A stretch of DNA of 64,000 nucleotides from an uncultured delta proteobacterium (GTDB lineage: Bacteria > Desulfobacterota > Desulfobacteria > Desulfobacterales > UBA11574), in the NCBI GenBank assembly GCA_963731025.1, contig CAVSVL010000042.1, positions 9,576 to 73,575 on the forward strand. The letters are read 5' to 3'. The translations under genes and the position numbers were made by a program. The notes beneath the pieces are model-generated. The model was not told the origin of the DNA. It worked only from the letters and a program-made list of their open reading frames with translations, and did not search any database. Shown here piece by piece: positions 150-33,056 of this stretch; the first letter of the stretch is position 1; each line of letters begins with the position of its first letter.

Positions 150-758
150 TTAAGCTCCAAGCGATCCTGTTTTCACTTCACCAACACGCTTGTAATTAGC
201 AACAATAACGCCGAGTGGCGATACTTTACTGTCAGTCAATTTGAAAGCCGCCGGAGTCGTACCCTCGGCAAATAGGCGTTTGCCTGGGCCGAGCGTTATA
301 GGGAAATGTTTGATCCACAATTCATCAGTCAAATCGTGCTTCAAGAGCGTCTGTATCAAGTTGCCGCTTCCCCAAACATGCAGGTCGGGGCCGTCCTCAC
401 TTTTAGGTTTCTTCACTTTTTCGGCAACATTGCCCGAGAGAAGCACAGAATTCTCCCAATCAAGCTTGAACGATGAATTATGAGACGCAACATACTTTTT
501 TACTTCGTTGATGCCGGGCCAACCAGCAGCGTTGTGCGGCCAGTATCCTGCGAAGATTTCGTATGTCTTCCGCCCAAGAAGCAGCTCAGATCGTTCTAAC
601 GGCATCTGCTCCCCCATCACCTTGCCCAAAAAGTCGTCCATGTAGGGACCCATCCACCCGCCATACTTGAAGCCTTCCAATGTATCTTCTTCGGAACCTC
701 CAGGTGCTTGTATAACGCCGTCGAGAGTTATGAATAATACAACAATAAGTTTTCTCAT
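150..758 (-). CDS. dihydrofolate reductase-like protein (RibD C-terminal domain family)
   Basis: 202-aa ORF with AAGGAG upstream of the ATG. Family motifs: N-terminal ITLDGV..APGG, LLLGRKTYE.F, C-terminal FPITLGPGKRLF. Confidence 0.85.
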   Translation of the reverse strand: MRKLIVVLFITLDGVIQAPGGSEEDTLEGFKYGGWMGPYMDDFLGKVMGEQMPLERSELLLGRKTYEIFAGYWPHNAAGWPGINEVKKYVASHNSSFKLDWENSVLLSGNVAEKVKKPKSEDGPDLHVWGSGNLIQTLLKHDLTDELWIKHFPITLGPGKRLFAEGTTPAAFKLTDSKVSPLGVIVANYKRVGEVKTGSLGA

Positions 759-944
759 AATTCAAACTCCTTAATCTCAATTAATTTTGGCCTAACACCG
801 TAAATCATCCGTGCCGCTTTTGCGTCGGCTGAATTTGCATGTTATACGGCCCATTTGCTTAGCTCCGTGGATCGGTCTCACCTTATTCTGGGCTCAAGAC
901 AAATAAGGCGTCCACCTCGGGATCGTTGAAAGTCGCCGTCCGGA

Positions 945-1505
945 TCACCCCTCATAGATTAAGATGACGATGCCATCACCGACCGTCTTCGATTCACTGA
1001 GCCGCAGGCGCTTCATGTCGCCCGTGTCGCCGAAAAGACGTTTGCCGGTCCCGAGAATGAGCGGAAAGACCATCAGACGCAATTCATCGACGAGGTCGTG
1101 TTCGACTAACGTCTGCACGAGCCGGGCGCTGCCATGGACGACGATGTCCCCATCCAGCTTCTGCCTCAATTTCGAGACCTCCTCCACCACATTGCCCCGG
1201 AGCACCGTCGAATTGTTCCAAGTGGCATTCCCAAGAGTCGAGGAGACGACATATTTGGGCATGCTATTGAACTTGTTTGCAAACTCGTTTTTCATGGATG
1301 GCCAGGCTGCGGCAAAGCCTTCATAGGTCACCCGCCCCAAAAGCAGCGCGACGGACGAGAGGGTTTCGTCGAGTTTGAAATTGTCGCCCTCCTCTCCACG
1401 ATTGATCTTGAAGGTCCAACCTGCGTGCTTGAAGTCCTCGCCTCCGCCTGGGGCCTCCATGACGCCGTCGAGCGAGACGAATTCGGTTACGACGATTCTT
1501 CCCAT
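945..1505 (-). CDS. dihydrofolate reductase-like protein (RibD C-terminal domain family), GC-rich paralog
   Basis: 186-aa ORF, AGGAGG upstream. Motifs VSLDGVMEAPGG, LLLGRVTYEGF, VFPLILGTGKRLF. Visibly higher GC than both neighbours. Confidence 0.85.
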   Translation of the reverse strand: MGRIVVTEFVSLDGVMEAPGGGEDFKHAGWTFKINRGEEGDNFKLDETLSSVALLLGRVTYEGFAAAWPSMKNEFANKFNSMPKYVVSSTLGNATWNNSTVLRGNVVEEVSKLRQKLDGDIVVHGSARLVQTLVEHDLVDELRLMVFPLILGTGKRLFGDTGDMKRLRLSESKTVGDGIVILIYEG

Positions 1506-1596
1506 TTTGTCCTCCTATTCGTTGTCGAAGTTAAAGTCCAATCCTATAACGATCTCTTCAAGCGGGTGCGGCTTTTTGCACTCCGTAAAAAGAGCG

Positions 1597-2256
1597 TTAG
1601 GCGTCACAATCCATCTTTTTAATTATAAAATGTGTCGCATTATCAGTGCGAACATTTTTAACACATTGATATCCCAGTGAAACTAAATCTATCTTTGAAA
1701 ATAGATTTTCCCCAGATCCTAAAAGGACGGGCGAAACAGCAATATGCATCTCATCTATCAATTTTGCATCGAGATACTGCTGAATCGTATTTACACCACC
1801 ACCGATCCTTACATCCTTACCCTCTGCAGACTCAAAAGCTCTTTCAAGCGCAGCTTGAATTCCTTCAGTAACAAAATGAAATGTGGTTCCGCCTTCCATT
1901 TCGAATGATTTCCTCTTATGATTTGTAAGGACAAAAACTGGTACGTGGTATGGTGGGTTCTTTCCCCACCAACCTTTCCATTCTTCATTAGGCCAAGGAC
2001 CTCGTAAAGGACCAAACATATTACGACCCATAATCCATGCACCAATGTTATAAAAACCACGTGATGCAAGGTCGTTGTCAACATCAGTTGTGCCTTCATC
2101 TTTTCCCATTACATATTGTTGGAATATTTTTGTTGGGAAAAACCATTTATGAAGGCTTTCACCACCAATTCCTAAAGGGTTTTTTGGACCTTGATTCAGG
2201 CCCGCACCATACCCATCGATGGAAACTGAAAAACTTTCAACACGTAACTTTTGCAT
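1597..2256 (-). CDS. dihydrofolate reductase-like protein (RibD C-terminal domain family), divergent AT-rich paralog
   Basis: 219-aa ORF. Motifs SVSIDGYGAG, IMGRNMF, HIAVSPVLLGSGENLF match the same fold with extra insertions. Confidence 0.8.
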   Translation of the reverse strand: MQKLRVESFSVSIDGYGAGLNQGPKNPLGIGGESLHKWFFPTKIFQQYVMGKDEGTTDVDNDLASRGFYNIGAWIMGRNMFGPLRGPWPNEEWKGWWGKNPPYHVPVFVLTNHKRKSFEMEGGTTFHFVTEGIQAALERAFESAEGKDVRIGGGVNTIQQYLDAKLIDEMHIAVSPVLLGSGENLFSKIDLVSLGYQCVKNVRTDNATHFIIKKMDCDA

Positions 2257-3352
2257 AATTTTACACTTTTCTAATTTACATTTTAATGACTACTTTGTAG
2301 TGTACCACCTAAAAATATGCGAAAAAACGTACATTTTTAGACGCGTAAAGGTCAACGCCGTTGACTTTTCATTCCTTCAAACGAAAACCCTCGAAGTACA
2401 TGCTTCATTGTATGTTCCTTGTATCTGCCAACCTTCCTTTAATTTCTCTATAATTATACCTCCTTTAATGCATAAGCATAAGGTTCGAAAAAAATAACAA
2501 CAACTTCAAGTGCGAGATGGTATCCAGTGTTGTCCAATTTGCTTGTCTGCGGCTAACTACACAATCCCTTAACTCAGAGGCAAATAATTTGAATGTCCGG
2601 ACACACTTTAGTGTTCAGCCTGGTTGCAACCTTCAACATTCAATAGTTTTCCAAATTTTTAGGTCTGTCTCAAGGCAACAGGCGACACCGTTTTGATCGA
2701 AGAGCTCGATTTGGAATGTCTTCAAGTGGCGTTTATGAGTTCAGGGAAAAGCCGTGGAGGTTCATCAATTTTTTGCCGGCCCATATCCTGTTGAACCGGT
2801 GTGACATTCAGTTCGTCAAAGAATTCATCCAAGGCCGGCGATTTTTCCTGTGCCAAGGAAGGCGAACAGTAATCCTCCTACCATGCAGTGTATCCATCTT
2901 CACGAAGTCGTGCGTTCTAAAGCGAATGGGTCATGGTTTTTCAGAAAGTCCGTATTGATGCGTATTCATTCTCACGCAGGTTCTCCAAGAGATCTTTTAA
3001 ACGGTCGTGTTTGCGTTTAGCAAAGACAAGATAGCTCGCCATATTGGACTCTCGGTATAAAAAGTTATTGCCTCAAAGTGGAATGTCAAGCAAATTTCAC
3101 TATATCGATATCGGAATATTTTTTTTGATTTGCAGTTCGAATCTAATTTCGTACCGAATAGGTATTAATTACTATAAGATACTATCAAAGATATAAGACC
3201 GTATTGCCAACATCATTTATAATGTTTATGGTTATACGCATCAAGTAAAGTGGTAATCATCGGTTCTATGATGGCGAGAAAGTAACCGTCGTAAAAACCG
3301 AAAACTTCTTCCAAAACATCCTTATAGAACCGGAAAATAAGGAGATAACATT

Positions 3353-3835
3353 ATGAAAACAGAAATAAAAACCATACCTGAGGGATTCCACACGGTTACT
3401 CCCTCTTTGACACTAAAAGATTCTCTGAAGGCCATTGCCTTCTACGAAAAAGCATTTGGGGCCAAAAATGCGGAGGTATTCCCATCGCCGGACGGCAAGC
3501 ACACCATGCATGCCACGATCCGGATCGGCGATTCGATCTTGATGATGGGCGATGAAATGTCCGACATGGGCTGTAAAAGCGCAGAATCCCTGGGCGCTTC
3601 GCCGATCAGTCTGTATGTTTATGTACCGGATGTGGACGCGGTTTTCGAGCAGGCGGTCGCTGCCGGAGCCACAGAAGTCATGCCGGTGGCGGACATGTTC
3701 TGGGGAGACCGTTGCGGAACACTGAAGGACCCGTTCGGCTATCAGTGGACAATCGCCACGCATAAGCGCGACCTGACCGAAAAAGAGGTTCAGAAAGGCG
3801 CCGAAGCGTTTTTTGCAGCCATGGAGAAGCCGTAA
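3353..3835 (+). CDS. VOC (glyoxalase/bleomycin-resistance/dioxygenase) family protein, PhnB-like
   Basis: 160-aa ORF with AAGGAG upstream. Motifs HTVTPSLTLKD..AIAFYEKAFGA and FWGDRCGTLKDPFGYQWTI are typical of the PhnB-like VOC subgroup. Confidence 0.85.
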   Translation: MKTEIKTIPEGFHTVTPSLTLKDSLKAIAFYEKAFGAKNAEVFPSPDGKHTMHATIRIGDSILMMGDEMSDMGCKSAESLGASPISLYVYVPDVDAVFEQAVAAGATEVMPVADMFWGDRCGTLKDPFGYQWTIATHKRDLTEKEVQKGAEAFFAAMEKP

Positions 3836-3846
3836 ACGCCAAAAGG

Positions 3847-4121
3847 CATGGAGGAAAAAATCACGCCCCATATATGGTTCAATAAAGAAGCTAAAGAAGC
3901 GGCCAGATTTTATACCTATTTTCTCTAACTCCAAAATTACGCACATCACGACGATCCATGAGGTTCCGACGCCGACAGGAGATTGCGACATCATATATTT
4001 TGAACTGAACGGGCAACCTTTTATGGCAATCAACGCCGGGCCGCTTTTCATGTTCAATCCATCAATATCTTTTACTATTCATTTTGACCTGTCGAGAGAT
4101 AAGAATGCGAGAAAAGAATGA
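3847..4121 (+). pseudogene. frameshifted and 3'-truncated PhnB-like / 3-demethylubiquinone-9 3-methyltransferase-domain (VOC) gene
   Basis: ATG 3847 reads MEEKITPHIWFNKEAKEAARFYTYFL then stops. The next frame continues SNSKITHITTIHEVPTPTGDCDIIYFELNGQPFMAINAGPLFMFNPSISF, the expected continuation of this family. Homology ends abruptly before the zinc-ribbon ORF. Confidence 0.6.
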
Positions 4122-29047: not shown

Positions 29048-29200
29048 AAATTCACTGGTTCCAATATCTATCTTATATGACTTTTTAATTCCTTGAAAAA
29101 AGTGCATACTTCTGCCTTATTCATCATGCATTCAAACCATCATATGAAGAGTGTTGATTGAGGTTCAGAATCATTAATACGAAACCTTAGATAGCTGCAA

Positions 29201-29225
29201 GTGCGCCACGAGCGCGCTTTTTATA
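29201..29225 (+). terminator. terminator-like hairpin ending the 20.7-29.0 kb cluster (alternatively the first 25 nt of the outer intron)
   Basis: GUGCGC-CACGA-GCGCGC (one G.U pair) followed by UUUUU. A GC-rich hairpin set in AT-rich intergenic DNA. Confidence 0.4.
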
Positions 29226-29925
29226 TAAAGTGTGCGTAACTGCACAAAAGATGAGGGTAGGCCCCTCGGAGCCGGCTTACAGGAGCAGGCTTCAAACCAC
29301 CTCAAGCTGCATAGGTAAAGAGCCTTTGTGGTGAGCGTTGAGGAAAAGGCATGGCAAAAGATCGTGTCAGGTGAGGATCAAGGAGATGAGCGCAAGCGAA
29401 TCACTGATGAGGTGTCGAAATATCAGAGATGGCGTCAAAACTGGGGTGCTTGCAGGTCTCCAGGATAAGCTCAGGGGAAACCTGTTTACTGCCTGAGCGG
29501 CGTCCGGCATAAAGGTGGCATGAACTTGATCCAGGCTTTTGTGCGGAACGTGGGGTGCGCTGGGAGAAGCTTGTGTTATCTTGCGGGTGGAAGTCCCGTC
29601 CGGCTAAAGCTTAGCGAGCGGGCCGGGAGCGAGTCTTGCGAGCGCCATGGTAACAGGGCGTTCGAAGCGTAGACAGCAGTTGTGCGGGGTGTGCTATTGA
29701 GCCACGAAATACGCTAATTGTGGAGGCCGAGACCGTCCCACGAGTCGAAGGCAGCATATGCACTGTCGTTATCGCGAGACAATGCTGCTCCACCGGGGTC
29801 TAAGAACACATCACGTACGAAAGGATGGCGCAGGAACCCAGGAAGCCCCGTCGGGTCCTATTGTTGGTCACTATAGGGGGATCAAGGCGAGGGAAGACCG
29901 GAGTCTTGGTCTGAGCTGAGGCGGG

Positions 29926-31440
29926 GTGGCGGACTGGGGTGTAGTACTGATGATGTCACCGAAGGAAAATAGTACGAGGTGTGCGGAGGGAAGGCCCCGG
30001 CCTGAGGGGATCTCTGGTGAGAAGGCGAAGGTCCGAACGCAGGGTCGGGCAGCCTTGCCAGCCAATCTTGCCAGAGTGAACGAGGCGGCGAGGAGATCGC
30101 GCAAGACCCGGTTTACAGCGTTGATGCATCACATGGATGTTGAGGCCCTAAGACGAGTCTTTAACCGGCAACGGCGGAAGGCCAGTGCAGGTGTCGATGG
30201 GGTTACGGTAGAAGAATATGAGGGTAATCTGGAAGCTAATCTTAAAGATTTATGCGACCGGGTGCACTCGGGATGCTACCGCCCTCAACCAGTGCGAAGG
30301 GTATACGTGCCCAAAGCTGACGGAGCCCAGCGACCGATTGGCATACCAGCTCTGGAAGACAAGATCGTCCAGGGATCGGTAGCCGAGGTTCTGAGCGCCA
30401 TATACGAAGTCGATTTTCTTGGCTTTTCGTATGGTTTTCGGCCTGGACGAAGCCCACATCAGGCGTTGGATGCTCTCAATGCAGCGCTAATTAAACGGAA
30501 AATAAACTGGGTGCTCGACGCAGATGTTCGCAGATTTTTCGACTCGGTTGACCACGAGTGGCTTTTGCGAATGGTTGCGCACAGGATAGCCGATCCACGG
30601 ATACTGCGGTTAATAAGACAGTGGCTGCGGGCAGGGGTCCTGGAGAGCGGCAAATGGTTCAAGACATTGGAAGGTACACCGCAAGGGGCTGGAATCAGCC
30701 CGATTTTAGCCAACATCTTCTTGCACTACAGTCTTGATCTTTGGGTTCATCAGTGGCGGCAGCGCCATGCTAAAGGAGAAGTCGTCATCGTGAGATACTG
30801 TGATGATTTCGTAATGGGCTTCGAGAAACAGACGGATGCGAAAAGCATGTTGGGTGAGCTCAAAGGGCGGCTAACAAAGTTTGGCCTCGGTCTGCATGAG
30901 AAGAAGACCCGTCTTCTGGAATTTGGCAGGTTTGCATCCGAGAGGAGAAAGAGACGGGGTATGCGACGCCCGCAGACGTTCGACTTTCTTGGATTCACGC
31001 ACTATTGCAGCATGAATAAGAAGGGACGTTTCTTTATTATGAGAAAGACTCAAGGTGCGCGCATGATACGTAAACTCAAGGAGTTGAGGATCGAAGCCAG
31101 GCGTCGGATGCATTGGCCGTTGAAGAAACAGCATCGCTGGTTGGCTGCTGTCCTAAGAGGTCATTATGCCTATTACGGGATTCTCGGGAACTCGCGTGCC
31201 TTATCGAGCTTTGCCTATGAGGTTCGTAAGTTGTGGTTCCGGGCATTGTGCCGACGAAGTCAGAAAAATGCGATGACCTGGGAACGATTTAACCGGCTTC
31301 TTAAGGTTTTTTTTTCCTCTCCCAATTCCAAGAATCATTCGCACCTAAAACGATGGCCTCAGCTGATCTTGGGTTACCTTCGGGAGGAGCCCATTGCGGG
31401 AAAGCCGCACGATGGGATCTGTGGGGGTGAAAGCCGGTAA
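29926..31440 (+). CDS. group II intron reverse transcriptase/maturase (IEP of the inner intron), no endonuclease domain seen
   Basis: RT blocks GVDGVTVEEY, RRVYVPKADGAQRPIGIPALEDKIVQ, FSYGFRPGRSPHQA, GTPQGAGISPILANIFLH, active site YCDDFVMGF, X/maturase region LRGHYAYYG. Likely start MMSPKEN at 29950. The last ~19 codons overlap domains V/VI. Confidence 0.9.
   Translation: MADWGVVLMMSPKENSTRCAEGRPRPEGISGEKAKVRTQGRAALPANLARVNEAARRSRKTRFTALMHHMDVEALRRVFNRQRRKASAGVDGVTVEEYEGNLEANLKDLCDRVHSGCYRPQPVRRVYVPKADGAQRPIGIPALEDKIVQGSVAEVLSAIYEVDFLGFSYGFRPGRSPHQALDALNAALIKRKINWVLDADVRRFFDSVDHEWLLRMVAHRIADPRILRLIRQWLRAGVLESGKWFKTLEGTPQGAGISPILANIFLHYSLDLWVHQWRQRHAKGEVVIVRYCDDFVMGFEKQTDAKSMLGELKGRLTKFGLGLHEKKTRLLEFGRFASERRKRRGMRRPQTFDFLGFTHYCSMNKKGRFFIMRKTQGARMIRKLKELRIEARRRMHWPLKKQHRWLAAVLRGHYAYYGILGNSRALSSFAYEVRKLWFRALCRRSQKNAMTWERFNRLLKVFFSSPNSKNHSHLKRWPQLILGYLREEPIAGKPHDGICGGESR
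31387..31419 (+). other. domain V of the inner group II intron
   Basis: GAGCCCAUUGCGG-GAAAG-CCGCA-CG-AUGGGAUC: AGC triad, 2-nt CG bulge, GAAA-type loop. The triad G faces A instead of the usual U. Confidence 0.6.
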
Positions 31441-31640
31441 CGGCTGATCTACCCGACAACCTGTCGGCCCGATGCTAAGGGAGAAACTCAAGTGGAAGAC
31501 CCACGAGAGTGAGAGTACCGATACAGGCCACGGGGGCGGAGCAACCCGTATTAGTGATGAGGTCTCTGTAATGGAGGTGGAGCGAAGGGGTTGCATCGAC
31601 CAGCTTTATAATATGGTCAACCATATAATGGGAGGAGCCA

Positions 31641-32897
31641 TTGAGTAAGGCAAAGCCGTTTAGTATTTCCAAACGAGTTGTGTTTGAGTCATACAAGCGG
31701 GTAAAAGCGAACAAAGGAGCAGCAGGAGTAGAGCGGGAATCGATTTCGGATTTTGAGAAGGACTTAAAGAACAATCTATACAAAATTTGGAATCGGATGT
31801 CGTCGGGCAGCTATTTTCCACCACCGGTTCGGGTGGTAGAGATAGCGAAGAAGGATGGTGGTCAAAGAAGATTGGGAGTGCCCACAGTGGCCGACCGCAT
31901 CGCACAAATGGTAGCGAAGGAGTATCTGGAACCATTTGTGGAGCCGCATTTTCATCCTGATTCATATGCTTATAGACCAAACAAATCAGCGATTCAGGCT
32001 GTGGGAGTAGCGCGCAAGAGGTGTTGGCATTACGACTGGGTTTTGGATCTTGATATTAAAGGGTTTTACGACAACATTGATCATGATCTGCTGATGCGTG
32101 CTGTTCGAAGACACACCGATTGTAAATGGATACTGCTATACATTGAGCGGTGGCTCAAAGCCCAGGCTCAACTGGAGGATGGTTCTCTGGTAGCCCGTGA
32201 CAAAGGGACTCCCCAGGGTTCGGTGATCAGTCCGCTGTTAGCCAATCTCTTTTTGCATTATGCGTTTGATGAGTGGATGAGGCGAAACCATCCGCATATT
32301 CCGTTCGAGCGTTACGCCGATGATATCATCGTGCACGGCAAAAGCGAGAGGCAAGCAGAGTGGATAAAGTCGGTCATTGAAAAGCGGCTTTTGGAGTGTA
32401 AGCTGGAACTGCATCCTGAGAAGACGCAGATTGTCTATTGTAAGGATGATTACAGGCGGGGAAATTATGTAAACGAGAAATTTGATTTCTTGGGTTATAC
32501 GTTCAGACCTCGCGGAGCAAAGGCTCGACATAAGAAAAGATTCTTCGTAGGCTTCAATCCTGCTGCATTAAGCAACAAAGCGGCAAAATCCATGGGGGAT
32601 ACCATTAGGAGCTGGGAAATTCATCTGATGAGTGATAAGTCGATTGAGGAGATTTCACGCATCATAAACTCTGTTGTGCGGGGGTGGATCAATTATTATG
32701 GCAAATATTACAGGTCGGCGCTTTATCCGATATTCAACCAACTTAACAAGGCTCTGAGAAAGTGGGCGATGAGGAAATGCAGAAGGTTGCGAGGGCGAAA
32801 GCGGAAGGCTGCCCTTTGGTTACGAAGGATAGCCCGTCGCGATCGAGGTTTGTTTGCACACTGGAGATTTAGTGCAGGATCTTTGGCTGGTCGATAG
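31641..32897 (+). CDS. group II intron reverse transcriptase/maturase (IEP of the outer intron), compact En-less type
   Basis: 418 aa, TTG start 4 nt after GGAGGAG. RT blocks VKANKGAAGVE, PPVRVVEIAKKDGGQRRLGVPTVADRIAQ, YAYRPNKSA, GTPQGSVISPLLANLFLH, active site YADDIIVHG, X domain VRGWINYYGKYY. Confidence 0.9.
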   Translation: MSKAKPFSISKRVVFESYKRVKANKGAAGVERESISDFEKDLKNNLYKIWNRMSSGSYFPPPVRVVEIAKKDGGQRRLGVPTVADRIAQMVAKEYLEPFVEPHFHPDSYAYRPNKSAIQAVGVARKRCWHYDWVLDLDIKGFYDNIDHDLLMRAVRRHTDCKWILLYIERWLKAQAQLEDGSLVARDKGTPQGSVISPLLANLFLHYAFDEWMRRNHPHIPFERYADDIIVHGKSERQAEWIKSVIEKRLLECKLELHPEKTQIVYCKDDYRRGNYVNEKFDFLGYTFRPRGAKARHKKRFFVGFNPAALSNKAAKSMGDTIRSWEIHLMSDKSIEEISRIINSVVRGWINYYGKYYRSALYPIFNQLNKALRKWAMRKCRRLRGRKRKAALWLRRIARRDRGLFAHWRFSAGSLAGR

Positions 32898-32931
32898 GAG
32901 CCGAATGAATCGAGAGATTCACGTTCGGTTG
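32898..32931 (+). other. domain V of the outer group II intron
   Basis: GAGCCGAAUGAAUC-GAGA-GAUUCA-CG-UUCGGUUG: 34 nt, AGC triad with a G.U pair, CG bulge, GNRA tetraloop. Begins 1 nt after the IEP stop. Confidence 0.8.
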
Positions 32932-33056
32932 CGTGAGGGACTGAGGGGGAAGCTCCCTCGGTCTACTCGACTAAAAAAATTATTGTGAAATGGTTTTCCG
33001 AACATTGAACTGCCTAACGATGTTGTGGCTGACGAATTTTCAGGAGATTTATATAA

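Follow-up and report, generated by a model that had tools for sequence, protein, structure and literature searches.

Evidence for a class-E-like group II intron nested within a class D group II intron of an uncultured delta proteobacterium

Bacterial twintrons are described as rare. In Thermosynechococcus elongatus, the intron TeI3 lies inside TeI4 (Mohr, Ghanem & Lambowitz 2010, PMC2882425), and the twintrons of this organism share three properties with the one described here: the inner intron has become adapted to homing at a conserved position within a second mobile group II intron, near-identical inner introns occupy diverged outer copies, which has been read as repeated independent insertion, and the locations are intergenic and non-essential. 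The T. elongatus pair comes from a single related (CL/IIB) family within one genome, and its inner intron has no ORF and is inserted in domain IV, between two start codons of the host ORF. Here, by contrast, the pairing crosses classes (E-like in D) and extends over many metagenomes; the inner intron encodes an RT itself and splits the ribozyme core at J1/2, and it is often the host that lacks an ORF. The nested introns of Methanosarcina acetivorans (Dai & Zimmerly 2003), as summarised in PMC4424553, likewise home site-specifically into group II introns, which form a 'perpetual homing site' without host-gene exons; as described there, they are archaeal, reach up to five levels of nesting and home into related intron ORFs, whereas the window analysed here contains one level of nesting and the target is ribozyme-coding sequence. 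For the twintron of Trichodesmium erythraeum, sequential splicing has been shown experimentally (Pfreundt & Hess 2015, PMC4649490). There too a IIB host intron is interrupted in its domain I region, and the order of splicing is the one predicted here, but the case is confined to one locus, a protein-coding gene, where a B1 intron lies inside a B2 intron and the IEPs are of En-type lineages, while the present twintron is intergenic, encodes IEPs without En and belongs to a recurrent family.

The window is the whole stretch of 64,000 nucleotides that was analysed (assembly GCA_963731025.1, contig CAVSVL010000042.1), and both introns and their parts lie on its + strand. The outer group II intron, of class D and RmInt1-like, spans 29201–32971, as delimited by end-to-end alignment with uninterrupted copies; the inner intron, which is class-E-like and 1903 nt long, spans 29555–31457, the segment missing from those copies. 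We are highly confident, from comparative sequence analysis, that the two elements form a genuine group II twintron, apparently created by retrohoming of the inner one into the linker between domains I and II of the outer one; it is real, though the kind of arrangement is already known. It occupies an intergenic spacer flanked by genes for a DUF6306 protein and a response-regulator/Ser-Thr kinase, and a search for an empty-site allele of this exact genomic locus found none. Rfam assigns the two 5' ribozyme regions, as full-length matches, to different families, D1D4-2 at 29253–29372 (E=4e-25) and D1D4-6 at 29590–29808 (E=6e-51), and finds two domain V/VI units, at 31385–31457 and 32896–32971, in nested order with these matches. 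The sequence motifs listed in the earlier note, together with its two RT/maturase ORFs (29926–31440, YCDD; 31641–32897, YADD) and two domain V/VI hairpins ending at 31457 and 32971, are all present as it described them; both ORFs pass TIGR04416, the NCBIfam model for group II RT/maturases (cutoff 300 bits), and both hairpins match RF00029. These Rfam and ORF signals for two introns exceed chance by far.

The nested arrangement is most directly visible in uninterrupted copies of the outer intron. At least eight of these, in other assemblies, align with it from end to end at 88–95% identity, and in at least eight independent contigs the equivalent of 29554 is directly contiguous with that of 31458; additional empty copies occur in S. 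meliloti and as a second copy in one further locus (L109). In-silico deletion of 29555..31457 leaves an outer intron of 1868 nt, of which positions 1–1823 align with uninterrupted copies. The inner intron is complete and lies wholly within the outer one, the remainder is colinear with its uninterrupted relatives, and domains I–III of both introns fold completely, all of which bears out the earlier proposal of a complete intron nested in the 5' part of another. The boundaries required some revision. The inner intron had been placed at 29541..31457, and its 3' end stands, but the junction alignment shows that the 14 nt from 29541 to 29554 are retained inside uninterrupted copies and are outer sequence; a 5' end at 29541 was rejected on these grounds, the true position being 29555. 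Of the two outer 5' ends that had been offered, 29201 is correct, as homology among independent copies begins at the 5' exon target (29190..29200); at the other end of the intron, flanking homology breaks at 32971. A start at 29230/29232 was rejected because the sole complement of the sequence upstream of it lies in the AT-rich domain IV and because homology reaches 40 nt further upstream; the GUGCG at 29232 is internal, and the two introns begin with GUGCG at 29201 and 29555. The segment 29232..29540 had been offered as the possible missing 5' part of the intron that carries the second ORF; this part extends over 29201–29554.

Domain I of the outer intron (29201..29554), delineated by RNAalifold, the D1D4-2 match and EBS covariation, is closed by a basal helix between CCACG (29206–29210) and CGUGG (29549–29553), followed by a second helix between 29240–29250 and 29536–29546. 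Downstream of the inner intron, 31458..31640 comprises J1/2 (AA), domain II (~31460–31534), domain III (~31535–31601) and the 5' part of domain IV, as indicated by the consensus fold and by contiguity with 29554 in uninterrupted copies. Folding of six diverse copies with RNAalifold revealed compensatory changes in 49 of 158 pairs and placed the insertion in J1/2; the outer sequence without the inner intron does form complete domains I–III. Domains V, with a 4-nt GAGA loop, and VI, with a bulged A, occupy 32896..32971 (RF00029 49.9 bits; z=-5.2), and the intron ends in ...CUACUCGAC. The 5' exon target consists of IBS2 (GAUA, 29190–29193) and IBS1 (CUGCAA, 29195–29200), which pair with EBS2 (29421–29424) and EBS1 (UUGCAG, 29450–29455), respectively. 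Both pairings covary across ~27 copies; the IBS1/EBS1 variants are CUGCAA/UUGCAG, CUCCAA/UUGGAG, CUGCUA/UAGCAG, GUCUGA/UCAGAC, ACGGCUA/UAGCCGU and CAAUAUA/UAUAUUG. The outer IEP (31641..32897; 418 aa, TTG start) contains RVT_1 and GIIM domains and a RYADDI active site but no En domain in its Pfam and TIGR04416 matches, the latter scoring 424 bits. It is 56.5% identical to the RmInt1 protein, to which the inner IEP is 34% identical. Pairwise IEP similarity rather than phylogeny, along with the En-less IEP and the presence of both EBS1 and EBS2, suggests that the outer intron is of class D, IIB3-type. We also considered a class C intron inserted after a terminator, and rejected it: the hairpin and T-run at 29199–29219 travel with the intron, 3' of the splice site, and class C (IIC) introns have no EBS2, while a covarying EBS2 is present here.

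Comparison with RmInt1, the class D/IIB3 intron of Sinorhizobium meliloti, reveals IEPs of similar length (418 aa for the outer intron, 419 aa for RmInt1), both without D/En, and a common ribozyme layout that includes a D1D4-2-type 5' region and EBS1/EBS2 targeting. The homing site of RmInt1, ISRm2011-2, differs from that of the outer intron, and its basal helix is CUGCAG/CUGCAG where the outer intron has CCACG/CGUGG, so that the IBS1 of the inner intron is missing from RmInt1 and the latter is not expected to host it.

The inner intron has a small ribozyme, with ~450 nt in domains I–III and 73 nt in domains V and VI. RNAalifold places its domain I at 29560–29841, domain II at 29846–29926 and domain III at 29930–30004 (29560..30004 overall), with compensatory changes in 82 of 139 pairs among 10 relatives. 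Domains V and VI lie at 31385..31457 (RF00029 45.4 bits; MFE z=-4.3), with a 5-nt GAAAG loop in domain V, and both introns have the domain V AGC triad, a domain VI with a bulged A and an AY-type 3' end. EBS1 (CCCACG, 29737–29742) is complementary to the 6 nt immediately 5' of 29555, and this IBS1, CGUGGG at 29549..29554, comprises the 3' strand of the basal helix of outer domain I and one further nucleotide; the insertion site is the 2–3 nt linker between outer domains I and II. The pairing of the EBS1 loop with the flank covaries across ~20 class-E relatives, in agreement with the earlier suggestion that the inner intron arrived by retrohoming, and in unrelated flanks the relatives of the inner intron start at the counterpart of 29555. 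The predicted 5' splice sites of both introns are fixed by covarying EBS1–IBS1 pairings. An EBS2 loop is found in relatives, and in the inner clade EBS2–IBS2 pairing is weak or ambiguous, with no convincing candidate. A reading of the inner intron as a IIC element targeting a stem and UUUU at 29493–29540 was abandoned when the correct boundary and the pairing of EBS1 had become clear.

A 5-nt domain V loop is a hallmark of classes IIE and IIF, and IIE introns are further defined by a ribozyme of 450–700 nt without the ORF and an En-less IEP (PMC3753933). The inner intron has the GAAAG loop, a small ribozyme and an IEP for which RVT_1 is the only Pfam match, and it may be termed class-E-like, an assignment that draws on pairwise similarity and one structural hallmark and not on a phylogeny. 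Its IEP is 61% identical to a disrupted RT on pRmeGR4b, which is the class E intron S.me.I4 (PMC5894124), and 61–67% identical to rhizobial relatives including that copy; the intron also shares with class E introns a small ribozyme, a domain V loop of 5 nt, the lack of En and an EBS1 placed in a terminal loop. The inner clade differs from these relatives in its active site, YCDD in place of YADD, and in its homing site, which is another intron, whereas the rhizobial targets are CTACACCAC-N5-GGGA|CACGAYC.

The inner IEP ORF (29926..31440) encodes an RT without an En domain, with a RYCDDF active site and a TIGR04416 score of 354 bits. Its start codon is uncertain, since domain III and the beginning of the ORF overlap. 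At the C-terminus the frame is shifted by 4 additional nucleotides in a T-run at ~31311–31319, which moves the end of the ORF to 31440; in close homologues the stop falls at a position equivalent to about 31343, ~95 nt earlier. The frameshift removes a conserved FPLPxPRI motif, and the ending to which it belongs, ...FPLPxPRIIRT*, is kept in all 11 complete nested metagenome copies and in 29 of 30 close homologues. This may have impaired the inner copy in the window; alternatively, the T-run could be an error of assembly. This departure from an otherwise conserved ending is the argument for regarding the twintron as a decaying relic, whose inner IEP supports neither splicing nor mobility and whose outer intron is locked without excision. 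We consider this possible but doubtful: only the last ~10 residues are altered, both ribozymes, the RT and X regions and the entire outer IEP are intact, homopolymer length errors are frequent in assemblies, and a related IEP could work in trans, cross-complementation being documented among RmInt1 relatives (PMC4615759).

Nesting at the identical site was found at six loci including the window. In metagenomes there were 33 pattern matches, two of which were excluded as chance 21-mers without an intron; 29 of the 31 genuine inner copies sit at the identical site. A class-E-like intron inside a class D intron at this one nucleotide position was seen more than 30 times in independent assemblies. 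When GTDB genomes were scanned with the inner IEP as query, the only nested relative was one of the six loci (L014), the other 78 loci being relatives of 61–73% identity with other targets. Relatives with 89–98% identity to the inner intron occupy this site at other loci. At the nested loci inner copies are 91–98% identical, while the host introns are divergent and often ORF-less (75–97% identity in the 5' ribozyme, 63–93% in the IEP where it is not absent). That inner copies remain alike while host IEPs diverge points to repeated homing of the inner intron. The alternative is a single ancient insertion, after which the composite was inherited and diverged as a unit, with the inner intron no longer independently mobile and the recurrence vertical. 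The near confinement of the inner intron to outer-intron contexts would fit this, as would the outer target motif GATAnCTGCAA common to many twintron copies, which is also expected of a composite moving as a unit. We nevertheless judge it very improbable, given that the inner copies are far more alike than hosts that fall to 75% (ribozyme) and 63% (IEP) identity, an argument also applied to the Thermosynechococcus twintrons (PMC2882425). Moreover, some hosts contain an ORF and others do not, unoccupied hosts of the same lineages are known, and at one locus (L108) the inner 5' end adjoins non-intron DNA that still terminates in AACGTGGG. The inner element could be a member of a class-E clade parasitic on other introns, one that normally homes to the junction between domains I and II in a single sub-lineage of class D; at the many loci where the host ORF has been lost, the inner RT is the sole protein of the composite.

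The earlier note had reasoned that 29232..29540-like sequence in front of other copies of the first ORF's intron would mean a single long intron (from 29201 or 29232 to 31457) followed by a 5'-truncated second one. Such sequence is indeed seen there, but it recurs before inner copies because it is the homing site of the inner intron, and the conclusion fails because uninterrupted outer copies carry it directly in front of the sequence from 31458 onward. This reading, to which we give practically no credence, is already refuted by the eight or more contigs that join 29554 to 31458; in addition, 29201–29554 is a complete domain I with its closing helix running to 29553, 31458 onward supplies domains II–VI of the same family, and relatives of the inner intron begin at its 29555 equivalent in unrelated flanks. 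Equally remote is an assembly chimera of two repeated elements, for although the two introns are repeats with multiple copies and related contigs are in many cases short, identical junctions recur in over 30 contigs, produced by different projects and assemblers and in some cases 8–14 kb long, and the junction falls exactly where EBS1 predicts.

On the favoured reading of a true twintron, the EBS1 loop CCCACG of the inner intron would recognise the homing site CGUGGG within a target of GGAACGTGGG|AACCTG. The inner intron is predicted to splice first and the outer intron after it, for two reasons: while the inner intron is present, outer domain I is held 1.9 kb from domains II–VI, and the basal-helix strand that the outer intron needs doubles as the 5' exon strand bound by the inner intron. 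Excision of the inner intron would rejoin ...CGUGGG|AACCUG..., whereupon the outer intron could fold and splice. An insertion in this linker might in principle be tolerated by the outer ribozyme, and we infer the dependence of the outer intron on inner excision. Outer lariats would be 'empty' after inner excision, and fresh outer copies would constitute renewed homing sites to be refilled by the inner RNP; as neither IEP has an En domain, homing presumably proceeds via replication-fork priming. A further proposal, which we put forward tentatively and think unlikely, is that the composite is a two-ribozyme retroelement that either moves as a unit or has its ORF-less host aided by the inner IEP, with the order of splicing set by competition for CGUGGG.

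For annotation, the locus is a warning, as pipelines that seek an RT and one flanking ribozyme would miss or mis-bound the outer element, a failure of the kind noted in PMC8919778. For the biology of these introns, the recurrent pairing of an E-like with a class D intron offers a natural system in which to ask how a ribozyme folds around another ribozyme, whether competition for a common strand imposes the order of splicing, and how one intron may serve as a harmless, continually renewed landing site for another intron.

The features listed in the earlier note could all be located in the window sequence, among them its two RT/maturase ORFs (29926-31440 and 31641-32897), which both exceed the cutoff of 300 bits for the group II RT/maturase model TIGR04416, with 354 and 424 bits, respectively. 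RVT_1 matches both intron-encoded proteins (IEPs), and GIIM matches only the second, that of the outer intron. The Rfam matches run in nested order, with D1D4-2 for the outer 5′ ribozyme (29253-29372, E=4e-25), D1D4-6 for the inner one (29590-29808, E=6e-51), and then DV/DVI of the inner (31385-31457) and of the outer intron (32896-32971); a twintron is expected to show two 3′ ends after two distinct 5′ ribozyme families, as here. A c-di-GMP-I riboswitch aptamer on the minus strand (RF01051, 43905-43989, 83 bits, E=6e-15) is unrelated to the twintron. The outer IEP shares 56.5% identity with the RmInt1 protein, the single 419-aa ltrA of pRmeGR4b of S. meliloti GR4, encoded near the nfe genes; the inner IEP reaches only 34%, and shares 61% with the disrupted RT of pRmeGR4b. 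DV/DVI of both introns fold well, with a domain V loop of 5 nt in the inner and 4 nt in the outer intron; a 5-nt loop and a small ribozyme are traits used for class E (PMC3753933). On these pairwise IEP identities and on loop and ribozyme size, the outer intron is assigned to class D and the inner intron is class-E-like.

Contigs that encode close homologues (85-92% identity) of the second IEP supplied uninterrupted outer copies, of the kind that the earlier note had proposed to seek in the rest of the genome. The outer sequence minus the inner segment aligns with six loci (L003-L008) at ~90% identity, end to end or to the contig end, and two more (L131 and L134) are colinear straight through the insertion junction; nor does any insertion break L094, a related intron of S. 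meliloti, or the second copy in L109, which is ORF-less. At the junction the uninterrupted copies carry GTGCGGAACGTGGG, which corresponds to window positions 29541-29554; the missing segment is therefore 29555-31457, and the inner 5′ end is the next GUGCG, at 29555. Thus the nesting and the 3′ end at 31457 originally proposed are retained, while the proposed start at 29541 is not: the GUGCG at that position belongs to a strand of the second helix of outer domain I (29240-29250 with 29536-29546).

For the outer 5′ end, 29232 and 29201 had both been considered. Independent outer copies remain homologous for ~40 nt upstream of 29232, as far as GATA at position 29190. IBS1 CUGCAA (29195-29200) is complementary to EBS1 UUGCAG (29450-29455), and across ~27 copies the two co-vary (CUCCAA/UUGGAG, CUGCUA/UAGCAG, GUCUGA/UCAGAC, ACGGCUA/UAGCCGU, CAAUAUA/UAUAUUG), as do IBS2 and EBS2 (29190-29193 and 29421-29424; e.g. 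AAGAAU/AUUCUU, UAUGUU/AACAUA). Together these observations place the start at 29201 and eliminate 29232. A terminator-like hairpin at 29199-29219 is intron sequence, which rules it out as an exonic element. Flanking homology breaks at 32971, the 3′ end first read from the sequence.

A consensus fold of the outer sequence without the inner segment, derived with RNAalifold from six copies, one of them the S. meliloti relative, yielded, as the nested arrangement had predicted, domains I, II (~31460-31534) and III (~31535-31601); 49 of 158 pairs are compensated. The basal helix of domain I pairs CCACG (29206-29210) with CGUGG (29549-29553); the equivalent helix of RmInt1, CUGCAG/CUGCAG, provides additional covariation. 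This layout puts the inner intron in the 2-3 nt linker between domains I and II (J1/2) and makes its IBS1 the 3′ strand of the outer basal helix. Domains I-III of the inner intron are complete (29560-30004; 82 of 139 pairs compensated), and its EBS1 loop CCCACG (29737-29742) is complementary to CGUGGG (29549-29554). Some 20 relatives inserted between unrelated flanks each show a match between this loop and the 5-7 nt that precede the intron (e.g. GACGCA/UGCGUC, ACCGGG/CCCGGU, GUCGCC/GGCGAC, AUGCGGG/CUCGCAU). A search for an EBS2 pairing in this clade gave none that was convincing; IIE splicing in vitro is independent of EBS2 (PMC3753933).

Of 30 close inner-IEP homologues, 29 have YCDD. Overlap of the ORF with domain III leaves the start of this IEP uncertain. 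Near the end of the ORF the window reads GGTTTTTTTTTCC where relatives read GGTTTTCCC, with a T-run (31311-31319) a net 4 nt longer than in all close relatives. The frame change replaces the last ~10 codons, ...FPLPxPRIIRT*, with 43 unrelated residues running into domain V; the motif is kept in 11/11 complete nested metagenome copies and in the class-E relatives examined. Either a genuine mutation or an assembly error in the homopolymer may account for the longer run.

The nesting recurs. In all four contigs obtained from close inner-IEP homologues (L010-L013), outer-like sequence is interrupted by the inner intron at the same site; in a GTDB genome scan the sole nested relative was L014, from a deltaproteobacterial MAG (92% identical), and relatives at 61-73% occupy other targets. 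Scanning metagenomes for the 21-mer of the inner 5′ end gave 33 matches, of which two (L104, L123) lack any intron and were discarded as chance and one (L102) has only 4 nt of flank. At L108 (7959-8028), only 70 nt from the 5′ end of the inner intron are present, and they adjoin non-intron DNA ending in AACGTGGG / GAAACGTGGG; ectopic retrotransposition or a chimera at the contig end may explain this. In the other 29 of the 33, the 3′ end of class D domain I precedes the inner 5′ end. Six hosts bear an ORF (the window, L011, L095, L101, L119, L124) and at least nine are ORF-less (L010, L012, L014, L102, L105, L107, L109, L117, L122); in L096 the ORF is missing from the inner intron itself. L109 (1-3210) holds an ORF-less class D host with the inner intron and, in tandem behind it, that host again, ORF-less and uninterrupted. 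Identity to the window is 91-98% for inner parts, 75-97% for host 5′ ribozymes and 63-93% for host IEPs; in L101 the inner intron is 96% identical, whereas the host IEP is 65%. Alike inner copies in diverged hosts fit repeated homing, an argument also made for Thermosynechococcus (PMC2882425). The L095 host (276-3952) is a mosaic (5′ outer part 93%, 3′ ribozyme 80%, IEP 63% identity to the window), which suggests recombination or co-conversion across the twintron.

Other intron arrangements were encountered. L094 (S. meliloti pSymA, CP140947.1 141525-147757) shows reverse nesting at ~700-3823: a class-D-like intron, with an IEP 63% identical to the outer IEP of the window and EBS1 AGUCGU pairing with ACGACU, interrupts the RT of a class-E-like intron precisely at its RYADD codons; the 3′ part of that class-E-like intron is missing. 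In a Marinacidobacterales MAG (L020, L021, L023, L025; 1503-5428), a class-E-like intron is interrupted after ~nt 385 by a 2-kb intron that has an IEP and DV/DVI of its own, and this 3.9-kb twintron occupies at least four genomic sites. A third type, Rfam D1D4-4 (L010 2559-2697, L014 5668-5806, three matches in L096), lies directly downstream of, or among, ORF-less twintrons, suggesting intron clusters or further nesting. Rhizobial class-E relatives (L033, L043-L064 and others) start with GUACG, not GUGYG, and share the target CTACACCAC-N5-GGGA/CACGAYC (slash, insertion point) at many different genomic sites.

Both twintrons and the homing of introns into other introns are already established (PMC4424553, PMC2882425, PMC4649490), and the present twintron is a new, well-populated example rather than a new kind, set apart from known twintrons by its cross-class pairing, its site in the core J1/2 linker and its frequent ORF-less hosts. 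We propose that a class-E-like RNP would target GGAACGTGGG/AACC in DNA encoding class D introns. In the RNA the inner intron would be the first to splice, restoring the outer basal helix and J1/2 linker, and the outer intron would splice after it; mobile outer lariats would then give rise to empty copies, open to renewed invasion.
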